A stretch of 64,000 nucleotides of DNA from Escherichia phage vB_EcoM_PTE-Eco05, in the sequence record PQ306573.1. The stretch is one strand, 5' to 3'. Of the stretch, positions 2,422 to 11,472 are shown piece after piece. A model generated the notes under the pieces. The model ran no database searches, was not told the DNA's origin, and was given only the letters and a program-made list of their open reading frames with translations. How positions within the stretch are numbered: position 1 is the first letter of the stretch; every line of letters begins with the position of its first letter. The position numbers and the translations under genes are program-made.

Positions 2422-2654
2422 GTATAGCAATTTACATTAAATCAGAATCATGTGATAGTTACCTGTACACATACGATAAAGATGTGTCAGAAGAAAAAAT
2501 CAAAGACGACCTTAATATGGACCTTGATATGTTCTGTCCTATTGCAGATTACAAACTTGCGGTCTCTAATAGTGAAAGTCCATCTAAAGAAACGCGCATT
2601 GAAGAATTTATGTCCGAATTAATGGCCAAATCATGGGACCGAGATGATGAGTAA
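2403..2654 (+). CDS. hypothetical acidic protein
   Basis: 83-aa ORF; start uncertain (alternative ATG at 2418). Confidence 0.45.
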   Translation: MQEFEMSIAIYIKSESCDSYLYTYDKDVSEEKIKDDLNMDLDMFCPIADYKLAVSNSESPSKETRIEEFMSELMAKSWDRDDE

Positions 2655-3102
2655 GAAAAATAAAGCGAAAGAACTATCAGCCGGTATTATTTTCCTTACC
2701 GAAGATAAAGAATTATTCATGGGGCGTGTAACTGGTTCTCGTCCTAAAGGTGCATTAGCTCATCGGTGGGATATTCCTAAAGGACGTGTCGAGCCCGGTG
2801 AATCTCCTATTGAAGCCGCTATTCGCGAATGCGAAGAAGAAACTGGGTTTACACAATATGACCCTGCCTTCCTGAAAGACCTAGGTGAACATCATTACTC
2901 AGACAATAAGAATATACATCTGTTCCTATATACCATCCCTGTAGAGCACGAGCAATTCAGAAACAGTATTTGTAATTCATATCATACATTCCCAGACGGA
3001 CGTCAGATTCCTGAATTTGATGCATTCGCTTTAATTAAACCTTCTCAATGGGAATATGTGATGGGCAAATCATTATATAAGGTGCTCACTACCCTACTAT
3101 AA
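2644..3102 (+). CDS. nudE: Nudix hydrolase
   Basis: 152 aa; Nudix box GRVEPGESPIEAAIRECEEETGF; directly upstream of lysozyme as in T4. Confidence 0.85.
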   Translation: MMSKKNKAKELSAGIIFLTEDKELFMGRVTGSRPKGALAHRWDIPKGRVEPGESPIEAAIRECEEETGFTQYDPAFLKDLGEHHYSDNKNIHLFLYTIPVEHEQFRNSICNSYHTFPDGRQIPEFDAFALIKPSQWEYVMGKSLYKVLTTLL

Positions 3103-3108
3103 GTAATA

Positions 3109-3136
3109 AATACCTCCTATAAACATGGGAGGTATT
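3109..3136 (+). promoter_or_regulatory. RBS-sequestering hairpin (9-bp inverted repeat AATACCTCC / GGAGGTATT) with late-promoter-like TATAAACA in the loop
   Basis: perfect inverted repeat read from sequence; SD GGAGG lies in the 3' arm; matches the known T4 gene e arrangement. Confidence 0.6.
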
Positions 3137-3625
3137 ATGAATATATTTGAAATGCTTCGTAATGACGAAGGTCTTAGACTGACTTTATACAAAGACACTG
3201 AAGGCTTTTGGACGATTGGCATAGGCCATTTGGTAACAAAGAACCCGTCTTTAGCCGTAGCTAAAGCTGAACTTGACAGAATGATCGGTCGTAAATGCAA
3301 CGGTACAATTACCCTTGATGAGGCTGAAAAGCTATTTAACGAAGACGTTGATAAAGCCGTTCGCGGAATCTTGGGTAATGCTAAACTTAAACCGGTATAT
3401 GATTCTTTAGATGCGGTTCGTCGATGTGCATTGGTCAATATGGTCTTCCAAATGGGTGTAGCAGGCGTCGCTGGTTTTACTAATTCTCTTCGTATGCTTC
3501 AACAGAAACGTTGGGATGAAGCGGCAGTAAATCTAGCCCAATCTAAATGGTATCGTCAGACACCTAATCGCGCGAAACGCGTAATCTCAACATTTAAAAC
3601 AGGAACTTGGAAAGCGTATATATGA
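3137..3625 (+). CDS. e: lysozyme (T4 endolysin)
   Basis: [23 protein letters not shown]... near-identical to T4 lysozyme over full length. Confidence 0.97.
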
Positions 3626-3903
3626 AAACATATAGTGAATTTTTATCAGAATCTATTCTTAGCGAAGCTACCGACACATTTGCAACTAAGCTAGGTGCAG
3701 CTTTGGTTGAAGCCGAAAGTCTATTAGCACGTATTTCTGAACTTGCTAGTAAGATAGATACTCGCAAATTTGAACGTACCAGCGATATCGCTAAGCTTGA
3801 AGCCTTGTTACGTATGTGCGATAAACCGGAAGAAATCGCTAAGAACGGCTCGCTGATGAAACAACGTCTTGAAAAATATATTTCAGGCGCTTCAGAAAAA
3901 TAG
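3622..3903 (+). CDS. internal-protein-like with capsid targeting sequence
   Basis: N-terminus [10 protein letters not shown] resembles T4 CTS MKTYQEFIAE; ATGA overlap with e stop. Confidence 0.55.
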
Positions 3904-3904
3904 T

Positions 3905-3934
3905 GTTTACTTCCTCCAAGGACTTTGATACTAT
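3905..3934 (+). promoter_or_regulatory. T4-type early promoter (GTTTAC, 18-nt spacer, TACTAT)
   Basis: GTTTAC at 3905-3910, TACTAT at 3929-3934; 10-bp inverted repeat TTCCTCCAAG / CTTGGAGGAA (3911-3920 / 3950-3959) pairs spacer with the denV SD. Confidence 0.5.
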
Positions 3935-3961
3935 ACATTCATCAACTACTTGGAGGAAATT

Positions 3962-4375
3962 ATGACTCGTATCAATTTAACACTTGTTTCTGAACTGACC
4001 GACCAACATCTTATGGCTGAGTATCGTGAATTACCACGCGTATTTGGTGCAGTCCGTAAACATGTTCAAAACGGTAAACGTGTAAAGGATTTTAAAATCT
4101 CTCCAACATTTATCTTAGGCGCAGGTCATGTAACATTCTTTTACGACAAACTCGAATTTTTACGTTTACGTCAAATCGAGCTAATCGCCGAATGTTTGAA
4201 ACGTGGTTTCAAAATCAAGGACACGACTGTCCAGGATATTTCCGACATCCCTGCCGAATTTCGTAATAATTATGTCCCGTCCGAAGCGTCCATTGCGATA
4301 AGTCAAGCACGCTTAGATGAAAAAATTGCTCAACGTCCGACTTGGTACAAATACTATGGTAAATCAATTTACTAA
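3962..4375 (+). CDS. denV: endonuclease V, pyrimidine-dimer DNA glycosylase
   Basis: [34 protein letters not shown]... near-identical to T4 endo V. Confidence 0.95.
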
Positions 4376-4381
4376 GGAAAA

Positions 4382-4642
4382 ATGAAAATGTATCAAGAAT
4401 TTATCATTGAAGCAGATGCCAAAGGTCCTAAATTTAAAGTTAAAGCTTTCATTGGTGATGCGGAAGATTTTGGCTCATTAAAACGTAATGGGTACTTTTT
4501 CTTAGGTGGCGATGGTAAAGAAATCAACACCTATGCAAAACGTAGTGAAATTGCTTATGTTGTAGCAAGTCCTAAAGTAGATGTTGACGATATTGGATAC
4601 GATTTTAACAACTTCGGAATTATTTCTGGCGGTAAAGCTTAA
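4382..4642 (+). CDS. internal protein with CTS
   Basis: N-terminus MKMYQEFIIEA. Confidence 0.65.
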   Translation: MKMYQEFIIEADAKGPKFKVKAFIGDAEDFGSLKRNGYFFLGGDGKEINTYAKRSEIAYVVASPKVDVDDIGYDFNNFGIISGGKA

Positions 4643-4705
4643 ATTGTTTACGCTTAAGTATTAATATGGTATAATTACTCTATCAAAACAAACAAGGAAA
4701 CAAAA

Positions 4706-5284
4706 ATGAAAACATATAAAGAATTTATCGCCGAGGCCTTTGCAGGAAAAGCTCAAGGCATTAATAAGGACGAGTGGACTTATCGTGGCGGAAACGGCTT
4801 TGACCCTAAAACAGCTCCTATTGAACGGTACTTAGCTACAAAGGCTTCCGACTTTAAAGCCTTCGCTTGGGAAGGACTTCGCTGGCGTAACGATCTAAAT
4901 ATTGAAGTTGACGGTCTTAAATTTGCTCATATTGAAGATGTTGTTGCTAGTAACTTAGACGCAGCTTTTGTTAAAGCCGACAGTGACCTTCGTCGTTGGA
5001 ATTTAAAACTGTTCTCTAAACAAAAAGGCCCGAAGTTTGTGCCTAAAGCCGGTAAATGGGTTATTGATAATAAATTAGCTAAGGCTGTCAACTACGCTGG
5101 TCTTGAATTCGCCAAACACAAATCATCATGGAGAAGTCTTGATGCAATGGCTTTCCGTAAAGAATTTGCCGATGTTATGACTAAAGGCGGCTTTAAGGCA
5201 GAAATAGATACCTCTAAAGGTACGTTTAAAGACGCTAATGTTCAGTACGCTTACGCCGTTGCCAATGCAGCCCGTAATTCCTAA
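4706..5284 (+). CDS. internal protein, IPIII-like
   Basis: N-terminus MKTYKEFIAEA; 192 aa, similar in size to T4 IPIII. Confidence 0.7.
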   Translation: MKTYKEFIAEAFAGKAQGINKDEWTYRGGNGFDPKTAPIERYLATKASDFKAFAWEGLRWRNDLNIEVDGLKFAHIEDVVASNLDAAFVKADSDLRRWNLKLFSKQKGPKFVPKAGKWVIDNKLAKAVNYAGLEFAKHKSSWRSLDAMAFRKEFADVMTKGGFKAEIDTSKGTFKDANVQYAYAVANAARNS

Positions 5285-5325
5285 TAAAGCTAATACTCAG
5301 ACCTATTTACATTTAAAGGAAACAT

Positions 5326-5628
5326 ATGAAAACATATCAAGAATTTATTACTGAAGCGCGAGTGAGTGCAGGTAAATTAGAAGCCGCTATAAATAAAAAG
5401 GCCCATTCATTTCATGATTTGTCCGATAAAGACCGTAAGAAACTTGTAAGCCTTTATATTGACAAAGAGCGTATTCTCGCTCTTCCTGGCGCTAATGAAG
5501 GTAAACAGGCCAAGCCTTTGAATGCTGTCGAAAAGAAAATTGATAACTTTGCTTCTAAATTCGGTATGTCTATGGATGACCTTCAGCAAGCGGCTATCGA
5601 AGCAGCTAAAGTAATTAAAGGTAAATAA
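5326..5628 (+). CDS. internal protein, IPII-like
   Basis: N-terminus MKTYQEFITEA; 100 aa, same size as T4 IPII. Confidence 0.7.
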   Translation: MKTYQEFITEARVSAGKLEAAINKKAHSFHDLSDKDRKKLVSLYIDKERILALPGANEGKQAKPLNAVEKKIDNFASKFGMSMDDLQQAAIEAAKVIKGK

Positions 5629-5741
5629 CAGTTTACTTTCTCCTAGAATTGTGATAGTATATTCATAATTACTTGGAGTGGTAAATACAGAAATGGACAA
5701 TTCATGCGCCACGGAATGGCCCAACCTAAAAGAGAAACTAA

Positions 5742-6281
5742 ATGAGAACATTTTTAACTGGACCTTATCTATCCCTGATGAATGCTTTTACACACCATTC
5801 TGATGCTAGAGTAGAAGAAATTTGTAAGAACGGTTATGTCCCACCATTTGAAGACGTACTCAAGCAGTACTGTACACTTCGACTAGACGGTGGACGTCAA
5901 TCAGGTAAATCGACCGCAGTAACTAATTTTGCTGTTAATTGGCTATATGATGGTGGAACAGTTATTGTTCTTTCTAATACTTCAGCTTATGCTAAAATTT
6001 CTGCTGGCAACATTAAAAAAGAATTTTCTCGTTATTCTAGCGATGATATTCGATTCCGTTTATTTACTGATTCTGTTCGTAGTTTTATTGGCAATGAAGG
6101 TTCTAAATTCCGTGGATTAACGCTTTCTCGTATTCTGTACATAATTGACGAGCCTATTAAAGCTCCTGATATGGATAAGATTTACAATGTCCATATTAAA
6201 ACAGTCCAACACTGTTGCAAAAGCAAATATTGCATCGGCGGTATTGCTCGTCCTCAATTTTTTGTGATTGGAATGCAATGA
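5742..6281 (+). CDS. hypothetical protein with P-loop-like GRQSGKST
   Basis: 179-aa ORF; Walker A-like motif. Confidence 0.5.
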   Translation: MRTFLTGPYLSLMNAFTHHSDARVEEICKNGYVPPFEDVLKQYCTLRLDGGRQSGKSTAVTNFAVNWLYDGGTVIVLSNTSAYAKISAGNIKKEFSRYSSDDIRFRLFTDSVRSFIGNEGSKFRGLTLSRILYIIDEPIKAPDMDKIYNVHIKTVQHCCKSKYCIGGIARPQFFVIGMQ

Positions 6282-6586
6282 TGACCACTATTGAAGTTTT
6301 TGAGTATTGTTATAACAGCCCAGTATGCAATAAAAGGGCTCTTGTAGAAAATTATGAGATTTACCATTTTAAACCTAAACGATATCGTTTGACTAAAGGT
6401 CCGTTCGCAGGGCAGCAGGTTCTTTGTACTGCTCCTAATGCACGGTTGATGACTAGTATTCCGCATTTCAAAATGGAATTTATTGATGGGCCATTTAAGG
6501 GATTAATCACTCAAAGTTTAATGGCGTTTAATTCCGTCCCATTTTTGATTAAAGAAAAAACTTGGATAAATTTATTTTCTAATTGA
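6278..6586 (+). CDS. hypothetical protein
   Basis: ATGA overlap with previous stop; 102 aa. Confidence 0.45.
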   Translation: MMTTIEVFEYCYNSPVCNKRALVENYEIYHFKPKRYRLTKGPFAGQQVLCTAPNARLMTSIPHFKMEFIDGPFKGLITQSLMAFNSVPFLIKEKTWINLFSN

Positions 6587-6592
6587 GGTTAT

Positions 6593-6955
6593 ATGAAAGC
6601 ATATCAAATTCTTGAAGGTGCACATAAAGGCACTATTTATTTTGAAGACGGTACTCAAGCCCGGATTATTGTCTCTAAGACTTTTAAAGAAGACGCTATT
6701 GTAGACCCGGAAATTTTCTACGGTTTGCATGCCCGTGAAATTGAAATTGAACATCAACCTAAAGTTAAAATTGAAGGTGGTCAACATCTGAACGTTAACG
6801 TTCTGCGTCGTGAAACTCTGGAAGATGCAGTTAAGCATCCGGAAAAATATCCGCAGCTGACCATTCGTGTATCCGGTTATGCAGTTCGCTTTAACTCTCT
6901 GACTCCGGAACAGCAGCGCGACGTTATCGCTCGTACCTTTACTGAGAGTCTATAA
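6593..6955 (+). CDS. autonomous glycyl-radical cofactor GrcA/YfiD-like protein
   Basis: C-terminal ~57 aa [59 protein letters not shown] matches E. coli GrcA including the RVSGY glycyl-radical motif. Confidence 0.85.
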
Positions 6956-10544: not shown

Positions 10545-10847
10545 ATGGCCTTAAGAGCGATAGCTGTCATGGCGATGCTGGGGTTTTTTGCAGCAACAAC
10601 TCCTATCGTTGGTACTGCATATATCGACCCATATTTTGATAACTTTATGGAATCAGGGATTAAAAACGTATATACTTTGTTTGAAATTCAAAATGTCGAG
10701 AATTCTGAAAAATTCTATAAGTATATGGCAAAGCATTACAAAAATAGCCCCTGTGATGATGCATTTGAATGTCATGAACAAGGCATAAAAACTGCCAGAC
10801 AATTTGCTGAGTTCATGAAAATAAAATTAGAGCCTACATCTATCTAA
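10545..10847 (+). CDS. small secreted Cys-containing protein
   Basis: signal-like N-terminus MALRAIAVMAMLGFFAA. Confidence 0.5.
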   Translation: MALRAIAVMAMLGFFAATTPIVGTAYIDPYFDNFMESGIKNVYTLFEIQNVENSEKFYKYMAKHYKNSPCDDAFECHEQGIKTARQFAEFMKIKLEPTSI

Positions 10848-10854
10848 TTTACTA

Positions 10855-10881
10855 GCCCCTTCCTTATGGTTGGGGCTTTTT
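10855..10881 (+). terminator. rho-independent terminator
   Basis: GCCCC...GGGGC stem followed by a T-run. Confidence 0.5.
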
Positions 10882-10882
10882 G

Positions 10883-10890
10883 TATAAATA
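10883..10890 (+). promoter_or_regulatory. T4 late promoter motif TATAAATA
   Basis: exact TATAAATA 25 nt upstream of the ATG at 10915. Confidence 0.4.
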
Positions 10891-10914
10891 TCCTTGTAAA
10901 CTAAGAGAGGATAT

Positions 10915-11472
10915 ATGAAATTTTTAAAATATGTAAGTTGGGTTGTTCTTGTTCCTATAGATTGGATCGCAGCGATTTTAGCAATTATTCTAGCACCATT
11001 TGTAGTTCCATTCCATAGTGAAAAAACCGGTAAACTACCTTATGGCTTTGACTGGATGATGACTTACGATAATCCTATCGATGGTGACCGCGGCCATGTT
11101 GAACGTTGGTCTAAAATACGTAAAATTCCTGTTATAGGTAAATATGCTCAACGCGTAGCTTGGCTATGGCGCAACAAAGCATATAATTTTTCGTATCATG
11201 TTTTAGGTCGCGAAGCTTCATCAGAATGGCACTATAAAGGCAACGCCGAAACTAAATCTGGATCTCCTGATCCGGCACATCATGGATATCTTTTAGTTTG
11301 GAACGAGTCGGCATGGGGATTATTCGCTGCTATACCTTATCTTAAGGTTGGTGGTATTACATTTTATCTGCGTGTTTACTGTGGTTGGAAACTTAAGAGT
11401 CTTTTGAGTCGTCCTATTCCACGCGCAATGCTTTCATTCCATATCAACCCTTTACGATATTACAAAAACTAA
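10915..11472 (+). CDS. membrane protein
   Basis: 185 aa; hydrophobic N-terminus. Confidence 0.55.
   Translation: MKFLKYVSWVVLVPIDWIAAILAIILAPFVVPFHSEKTGKLPYGFDWMMTYDNPIDGDRGHVERWSKIRKIPVIGKYAQRVAWLWRNKAYNFSYHVLGREASSEWHYKGNAETKSGSPDPAHHGYLLVWNESAWGLFAAIPYLKVGGITFYLRVYCGWKLKSLLSRPIPRAMLSFHINPLRYYKN

Follow-up and report, generated by a model that had tools for sequence, protein, structure and literature searches.

The stretch analysed here, the window, is 64 kb of DNA from a Mosigvirus (RB69-like) phage, and shares 97.5% identity with phages mogra, G2469 and AV114. Four open reading frames (ORFs), all on the + strand (3622-3903, 4382-4642, 4706-5284 and 5326-5628), begin with a sequence resembling the capsid-targeting sequence (CTS) of T4, and denV stands between the first and the second. 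The preliminary description placed four ORFs with CTS-like starts at 3622, 4382, 4706 and 5326, and all are present. It gave their sizes as 94, 86, 192 and 100 aa. The last three lengths are correct, but the first ORF encodes 93 aa. The features of the locus are as follows.

3622..3903, + strand: IP93, predicted internal head protein of the RB69 ORF127c / Ip5 family, 93 aa (PHROG 3499 'internal head protein', 6e-46)
3906..3958, + strand: PeSL-like element upstream of denV, an early-type promoter TTTACT-N17-TACTAT inside a 10-bp stem (CTTCCTCCAAG/CTTGGAGGAA)
3962..4375, + strand: denV, endonuclease V pyrimidine-dimer glycosylase, not an internal protein (Pfam PF03013, Pyr_excise, 8.5e-14; PHROG 1183, 3.8e-62)
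4382..4642, + strand: IP86, predicted internal head protein of the RB69 ORF125c family, 86 aa, leader MKMYQEFIIE followed by ADAK (PHROG 2667 'internal head protein', 4.9e-20)
4647..4675, + strand: putative sigma-70-type early promoter TTTACG-N17-TATAAT with an extended -10 TG, upstream of ipIII
4706..5284, + strand: ipIII orthologue, 192 aa, leader MKTYKEFIAE followed by AFAG, basic, pI 9.6 (PHROG 5341, 1.9e-117)
5326..5628, + strand: ipII orthologue, 100 aa, leader MKTYQEFITE followed by ARVS, basic, pI 9.5-9.7 (PHROG 7857, 4.5e-55)
5631..5686, + strand: second PeSL-like element, TTTACT-N17-TAGTAT, between ipII and vs.8, on the right-hand edge of the variable block

A common leader on unrelated proteins

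We scanned the whole 64-kb window in six frames for the motif MK.Y.EF. There are four matches, all at ORF N-termini, and each is directly followed by [L/I]-x-E. When the window was simulated 300 times with a first-order Markov model, MK.Y.EF occurred 0.02 times on average (maximum 1), and the extended motif MK.Y.EF[L/I].E did not occur at all. These residues have known roles, since mutagenesis of T4 IPIII assigned Y4 and F7 to targeting and L/I8 and E10 to processing by gp21, whose site is L/I-x-E (PMC9026906). Y4 and F7 are in register from the first methionine in all four ORFs, and each leader ends in the processing site: LSE10 (plus LSE15) in IP93, IIE10 in IP86, IAE10 in IPIII and ITE10 in IPII. 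Between 6 and 10 of the 11 leader residues are identical, and identity among the four proteins is 11-20% past residue 11. A leader in common with unrelated mature parts is the defining pattern of internal proteins (IPs) (PMC3012670), and the four ORFs fit it.

The register also bears on the start of IP86, which is annotated at the second methionine in mogra and phi25-307. Only the first methionine aligns Y4, F7, I8 and E10, and MK(M/T)Y is kept in RB69 and other homologues. Hence, we place the start at the first methionine.

The same residues recur beyond this phage. Among 67 CTS ORFs adjoining denV in IMG/VR phages, 64 have L/I8 together with E10, positions that lay outside the search pattern used to collect them. 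Two of the three exceptions are members of the IP93 family that keep L13-N-E15. In this family E10 is absent from the homologues in RB69, P0015 and T2 (Ip5), and [L/I]-x-E15, in the form L13-x-E15, is invariant. The propeptide of IP93 is thus most probably 15 residues long, with a predicted gp21 cut after L13-S14-E15 and a mature protein starting with ATD.

Two internal proteins of T4 and two typical of Mosigvirus

All four ORFs match PHROG families of internal head or virion proteins (E-values from 1e-20 to 1e-117), and all four already bear such names in the RefSeq and GenBank entries for near-identical phages. Pfam has no family for any of them, the sole hit being a sub-threshold one to DUF7412 for IPII. 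They are very probably ordinary T4-type internal head protein genes of an RB69-like T-even phage, of an already known kind. The original reading of the leaders as CTSs, and of the ORFs as internal protein genes, is thus borne out by the PHROG matches, the orthology with T4 IPIII and IPII and the existing annotations. The suggestion of a diversified four-member set holds in part. The ORFs of 192 and 100 aa are simply IPIII and IPII, so the set consists of two T4 internal proteins and two typical of Mosigvirus, not of four novel ones.

The 192-aa protein shares 177 of 193 residues with T4 IPIII (91.7%) and the 100-aa protein 93 of 100 with T4 IPII (93%), and both match their PHROG families end to end. 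They resemble their T4 counterparts in length, CTS, basic character and adjacency (ipIII, then ipII). They differ in setting: the pair lies downstream of denV and not, as in T4, between e and denV; ipIII stands under a promoter and leader which serve ORF124c in RB69; and, according to published work on the genus, the cytosines of the phage are arabinosylated instead of glucosylated. The synonymous codons of ipII are 97% identical to those of T4 and those of ipIII 84%; for nudE, e and denV the figure is 43-59%. The pair may have come fairly recently from the T4 lineage, crossing a reported barrier to recombination. We considered the arrival of ipIII-ipII as one PeSL circle integrating at a CTS, and dropped this model because the left junction in phi25-307 lies in the 3' end of an ORF124c-like gene, not at a CTS.

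The other two proteins have their closest counterparts in RB69. IP93 is 90% identical to RB69 ORF127c and occupies the same position, its start overlapping the stop of gene e (ATGA), but its leader is nearer to the canonical CTS than that of RB69. Its identity with Ip5 of T2, PP01 and AR1 is 48%. Tequatrovirus, by contrast, carries ip5 at its other IP locus (57B-ip5-ip7). IP86 shares 95% identity with RB69 ORF125c and likewise keeps its position, just 3' of denV. Its family is present in 216 phage records, from Mosigvirus, VR20/SP18 and Salmonella STP4-a/Melville. This family is narrow. A search of 5.8 billion proteins returned 11 clusters for IP86 and 5 for IP93, all from T4-like phages, too few for deep alignments. 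On such shallow alignments, AF2 predicts three helices for IP93 (pLDDT 72, pTM 0.36) and a small alpha/beta fold for IP86 (pLDDT 69, pTM 0.59), and these moderate-confidence models gave no informative fold match. None of the four proteins resembles T4 IPI (Ip1), which inhibits GmrS/GmrD, in sequence beyond the leader, but they would follow the same logic of CTS-driven packaging and injected inhibition. T4 encodes ipI at the 57B-tRNA locus, outside this window; at that locus mogra, the closest relative, carries Ip7- and Ip9-like genes.

Proposed cassette exchange around denV

DenV of the window is 91% identical to that of T4 and 99% to that of RB69. The preliminary description remarked that denV sits within the set, unlike in T4; this is correct, as the T4 order is e-ipIII-ipII-denV. 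The position is nevertheless not special: it is the arrangement of RB69 and a common one among T4-like phages. We found 14 unrelated CTS families in about 35 T4-like loci, lying on both sides of denV; IPIII, for example, precedes denV in 4 loci and follows it in 7. Cassette content differs even among near-identical Mosigvirus genomes, and there are several cassette sets within the genus. In the window, the 97.5% identity to RB69 ends at 4734, the last CTS codon of ipIII, and resumes at 5703. The hyperplastic array of IP cassettes is a known one, of which this locus is a textbook case.

Two intergenic elements with a promoter inside a stem-loop border the variable block, as in the PeSL cassettes described in T4-type phages (Arbiol 2010; Comeau 2014). 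The element at 3906-3958 has a predicted RNA fold of -17.8 kcal/mol (z = -3.3; none of 200 shuffled sequences was as stable), and its promoter agrees with the T4/PST PeSL consensus TTTACW-N17-TAYWAT (PMC4122927). The element at 5631-5686 folds at -19.9 kcal/mol (z = -4.2) and is 93% identical, over 45 nt, to the T4 element between e and ipIII. We took the promoters of both elements as fitting the consensus. The array departs from PeSL cassettes in that one clear breakpoint, at 4734, falls within CTS codons instead of a PeSL. The best promoter match of the region (10 of 12 positions) is the one at 4647-4675. It is common to the RB69 ORF124c cassette, the identity to RB69 running through it before it stops at 4734. 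None of the four genes is preceded by a canonical late promoter (TATAAATA). The only exact match to TATAAATA in the region is inside ipII, and what lies upstream of e is limited to versions with one mismatch. Expression at the time of head assembly would thus depend on read-through.

In the model that we propose, the cassettes would have in common about 45 nt made up of ribosome-binding site and CTS codons, with promoter and stem-loop elements at the cassette borders. Through homologous recombination in the shared segments, cassettes would then be swapped, added or deleted on either side of denV. This raises the question of whether the leaders of IP93 and IP86 have a function of their own. One or both proteins could be cytoplasmic early proteins that are not packaged, their CTS-like N-termini being recombination leftovers of shared ribosome-binding-site and CTS DNA. 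The shared 5' segment is indeed a recombination joint (the breakpoint at 4734), denV-IP86 has an early promoter-type element in front of it, IP86 is annotated from the second methionine in some records, and the leader of the RB69 version of IP93 is degraded (MKTYMNFYQN, without E6, L/I8 and E10). We regard this explanation as very improbable, as the CTS is conserved at the level of the protein, on exactly the functional residues, and the codons differ. Even RB69 ORF127c and T2 Ip5 (with F4) keep positions 4 and 7 in addition to the invariant [L/I]-x-E15, and every IP86 homologue, down to 66% identity, retains Y4, F7, I8 and E10.

Packaged internal head proteins thus remain the preferred reading. 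In the proposed pathway, the CTS of about 10 residues would bind the protein to the scaffolding core during prohead assembly, and the prohead protease gp21 would cut after the Glu of L/I-x-E, at E10 in IP86, IPIII and IPII and most probably at E15 in IP93. The mature proteins would remain in the filled head and enter the host with the DNA. This analysis itself shows that the motif is present, that the genes have orthologues, that the locus varies and where the breakpoints lie; CTS function, gp21 specificity and the targets of Ip1-3 come from the literature. For T4 IPII and IPIII, processed presence in the virion and injection are established (PMC9391042, PMC9026906). Our literature search found no published virion proteomics for the families of IP93 (ORF127c) and IP86 (ORF125c). 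The head module, with gp21 and gp22, lies outside the window; the proteins of RB69, the type species of the genus, are 88% (gp21) and 76% (gp22) identical to those of T4, and to judge from these sequences the packaging machinery is probably conserved in Mosigvirus. We infer that all four proteins are packaged, cleaved and injected.

Internal proteins and host restriction

Proteins injected with the DNA would act before any phage gene is expressed. The preliminary description credited T4 with three internal proteins, at least one of them an anti-restriction factor. This count of inhibitors is out of date: Ip1, Ip2 and Ip3 have all been shown to be inhibitors, each of a different GmrSD type IV enzyme (PMC12373910). 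Enzymes of this family cleave sugar-modified phage DNA, and published work on the genus indicates that arabinosylated Mosigvirus DNA is still cut by GmrSD/BrxU. The target of T4 Ip3 is the two-gene GmrSD of ECOR17 (PMC9391042; PMC12373910) and that of T4 Ip2 is the single-chain GmrSD/BrxU of ECOR21 (PMC12373910). Judging from 92-93% identity to T4, the IPII and IPIII alleles of the window most likely inhibit two different GmrSD subtypes, as their T4 orthologues do.

The packaged proteins might instead be mainly structural or charge-neutralising, condensing DNA or filling the scaffolding core, and not inhibitors of host defences. IPII and IPIII have a strongly basic pI of 9.5-9.7, the packed DNA of T4 has about 1000 IP molecules embedded in it (PMC3012670), and Ip4-10 showed no reproducible anti-GmrSD activity (PMC12373910). 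But T4 Ip2 and Ip3 are active when expressed in the host without packaging, each rescuing plating on one specific GmrSD (PMC9391042, PMC12373910), and IP93 and IP86, with a mature pI of 6.3-6.4, are close to neutral, which makes them poor at neutralising the charge of DNA. The fast turnover of cassettes among near-identical phages also fits an arms race and not a structural role. A mainly structural function is therefore improbable.

For IP93 and IP86, inhibition of other first-response host defences is the most likely function that we would propose. It is an extrapolation for IP93, as Ip5 was among the Ip4-Ip10 proteins that showed no reproducible inhibition of 15 GmrSD groups (PMC12373910). 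Published work has also shown that McrBC is blocked by another CTS protein. A more specific and tentative possibility is that IP93 and IP86 are injected inhibitors of defences for which there is no known phage inhibitor, candidates being enzymes of the GmrSD, BrxU or McrBC type that cut arabinosylated DNA. If so, the four-member set and the two IPs of the ipI locus would form a lineage-specific anti-restriction kit, assembled by CTS-mediated exchange of cassettes.

This locus leaves the current understanding of internal proteins unchanged. They are the first counter-defence of the phage, arriving with its DNA, and set which wild E. coli a T-even phage infects. As it carries orthologues of IPII and IPIII, this phage is predicted to resist GmrSD enzymes of the ECOR21 and ECOR17 types, and its Ip5-like IP93 and its IP86 could reasonably be screened against orphan type IV restriction systems.

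Four capsid-targeting leaders around denV

Four ORFs of the window, named here by their length in amino acids (IP93, IP86, IP192 and IP100), begin with a capsid targeting sequence (CTS), the ~10-residue N-terminal leader of internal head proteins (IP). The features of the region are as follows.

2644-3102, nudE
3125/3137-3625, e, lysozyme gene
3622-3903 (+), IP93, 93 aa, CTS N-terminus
3906-3958 (+), PeSL-type promoter-in-stem-loop, z = -3.3
3962-4375, denV
4382-4642 (+), IP86, 86 aa, N-terminus MKMYQEFIIE
4706-5284 (+), IP192, 192 aa, N-terminus MKTYKEFIAE
5326-5628 (+), IP100, 100 aa, N-terminus MKTYQEFITE
5631-5686 (+), PeSL-type promoter-in-stem-loop, z = -4.2
5742-6281, vs.8
6593-6955 (+), vs.6/grcA

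Scanned in all six frames, the 64-kb window has MK.Y.EF at exactly four sites, all of them ORF starts and each followed directly by [L/I]-x-E. Such sites are rare by chance: simulating the window 300 times with a first-order Markov model gave a mean of 0.02 and a maximum of 1. The preliminary description had reported four such ORFs at 3622-5628, with denV inside the set, and the scan retrieved just those four. It had the last three sizes right; the first ORF encodes 93 aa, not 94, its sole factual slip. denV separates the first ORF from the second, in the local order nudE, e, IP93, denV, IP86, IP192, IP100, vs.8, vs.7, vs.6/grcA. As had been noted, this differs from T4 (e-ipIII-ipII-denV-vs.8). 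The order in RB69 is e-ORF127c-denV-ORF125c-ORF124c-ORF123c-vs.8.

The 3.7 kb around these genes match 840 phage records and are 97.4-97.6% identical, over their full length, to the Escherichia phages vB_EcoM_G2469, AV114, mogra and AV109. By classification, both mogra and Shigella phage phi25-307 belong to the Tevenvirinae, genus Mosigvirus (RB69 group). The earlier reading of the ORFs as internal proteins is supported by their matches to PHROG 3499, 2667, 5341 and 7857 (internal head/virion protein; E 5e-20 to 2e-117), and by RefSeq, where the counterparts in RB69 and phi25-307 already carry the name 'internal head protein' or 'internal virion protein'; none of the four has a Pfam model. It is also supported by orthology: IP192 is 91.7% identical to T4 IPIII and IP100 93% identical to IPII, their genes being plain orthologues of ipIII and ipII. 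IP93 is 90% identical to RB69 ORF127c, and IP86 95% identical to ORF125c. The four-gene feature is thus of a known kind, annotated before. Pairs of window proteins have 6-10 of their first 11 residues in common; past residue 11 they are mutually unrelated (11-20% identity).

Ip5 of T2, PP01 and AR1 is 48% identical to IP93. In T2, ip5 occupies the other IP locus (57B-ip5-ip7-trna.4), hence this family is found at different loci in different genera. In mogra, the closest relative, a second IP locus downstream of 57B (10732-11368, a sequence outside the window) encodes an Ip7-like (MKTYQEFIAEA) and an Ip9-like (MKTFNEFISES) protein. By analogy, the complete phage probably encodes about six internal proteins.

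Leader and processing

The first 10 residues of T4 IPIII suffice for packaging; residues 4 and 7 chiefly govern targeting, 8 and 10 govern processing, and the prohead protease gp21 cleaves after the Glu of L/I-x-E (PMC9026906). Y4, F7, L/I8 and E10 are present in all four window ORFs. RB69 gp21 and the scaffolding core protein gp22, whose genes are outside the window, are 88% and 76% identical to those of T4, so the T4 packaging rules should hold in Mosigvirus. Among 67 ORFs of IMG/VR phages that adjoin denV and match MK.Y.[ED]F, a pattern leaving positions 8 and 10 free, 64 have L/I8 with E10. Of the three that do not, two come from the IP93 family and retain L13-N-E15. The leaders of RB69 ORF127c (MKTYMNFYQNLSLNE|A) and T2 Ip5 (MKTFKEFATKTTITE|S) likewise lack E10 and keep [L/I]-x-E15, from which we infer a putative 15-residue propeptide in the IP93/Ip5 family.

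The mogra and phi25-307 annotations start IP86 at the second Met (MYQEF), removing two CTS residues. We rejected this start: the register is correct only from the first Met, and these annotations are therefore probably two codons short. The mogra record also names lysozyme e 'baseplate hub', and vs.8 and vs.7 'endoribonuclease RegB'.

Variable cassettes and mosaic divergence

The content of the interval between e and vs.8 differs within Mosigvirus alone, where several sets occur.

CTS cassettes from e to vs.8 (RB69 gene names shortened)
RB69: 127c, 125c, 124c, 123c
Window and mogra: 127c, 125c, ipIII, ipII
phi25-307: 127c, 125c, 124c-like, ipIII, ipII, 123c-like
Av-05: 127c, 125c, ipIII, 123c-like
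phiE142: 127c, 125c, ipIII

Across ~35 T4-like loci anchored on denV, 14 sequence-unrelated families of CTS ORFs lie on both sides of this gene; IPIII members are upstream in 4 loci and downstream in 7. A denV inside the CTS set is therefore the common state, and T4 is one configuration among others.

RB69 and the window are 97.5% identical in DNA from 2500 to 4734, a stretch that takes in IP86, the sigma-70 promoter between IP86 and ipIII (4647-4675) and 29 nt at the 5' end of ipIII. The match breaks off exactly where the CTS ends and restarts at 5703. Blocks of ~45 nt (RBS and CTS) are common to the cassettes; 5311-5357, for instance, has 95.7% identity with the leader of T4 ipIII. The PeSL element (an early promoter in or next to a stem-loop) after ipII, at 5631-5686, is 93% identical to the one between e and ipIII in T4. 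The variability of the cassettes, the breakpoint and the codon identities given below all agree with published IP polymorphism and PeSL-associated shuffling.

Synonymous-codon identity to T4 (2644-6955) is mosaic: 96.7% for ipII, 87% for vs.6, 84.3% for ipIII and 70% for vs.8, against 59.3% for denV, 57.6% for e and 42.9% for nudE. The higher values of ipII and ipIII imply a more recent shared history with the T4 lineage than that of their neighbours. This suggests that the T4 and RB69 lineages exchanged the ip block fairly recently, even though a recombination barrier between them has been reported.

The value for vs.6 is also far above those of its own neighbours; its 120-aa product, a T4 vs.6/GrcA-like autonomous glycyl radical cofactor, carries a glycine-radical domain at its C-terminus (RVSGYAV; Pfam Gly_radical 2e-18). 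Just upstream of vs.8, 5680-5751 (+) shows homology to DNA that in T4 encodes the vs.8 N-terminus, its reading closed by a TGA overlapping the vs.8 ATG. In phi25-307 (4395-4772) this vs.8-type leader runs in frame into a CTS ORF (MDNSWAMEWSKPRENK-MKTYQEF). The vs.8 start (ATGAGAACAT) is one base away from a CTS start (ATGAAAACAT) and so may mark an old recombination joint.

Expression and probable anti-restriction function

The start codon of IP93 and the stop codon of e overlap (ATGA, 3622-3625), so IP93 is probably co-translated with lysozyme. A mechanical ORF call places the start of e at 3125; the one resembling T4 (MNIFEML) is at 3137. In T4, e is preceded by two perfect late promoters (TATAAATA), whereas the window holds, at 3098-3125 (+), only versions with one mismatch (TATAAGTA, AATAAATA, TATAAACA). 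No exact late promoter was found upstream of the four IP genes; their synthesis during head assembly is thus something that we infer.

Structure gave no functional hints for IP93 or IP86, with shallow alignments, moderate-confidence models and uninformative fold matches. Ip4-Ip10 showed no reproducible interaction with 15 GmrSD groups (PMC12373910). T4 Ip1 inhibits the two-subunit GmrS/GmrD of CT596, Ip2 the single-chain GmrSD (BrxU) of ECOR21 and Ip3 the two-gene GmrS1/GmrSD2 system of ECOR17, without cross-protection (PMC12373910; PMC9391042; preprint). A further CTS protein, Bas37_0260, inhibits McrBC (preprint). Judging from their sequences, IP100 and IP192 most likely act like Ip2 and Ip3, respectively. 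Mosigvirus DNA has arabinosylated cytosines, yet GmrSD-family enzymes cleave it nonetheless (PMC6024577; PMC13390438), and anti-type-IV inhibitors are therefore to be expected in the phage studied here.
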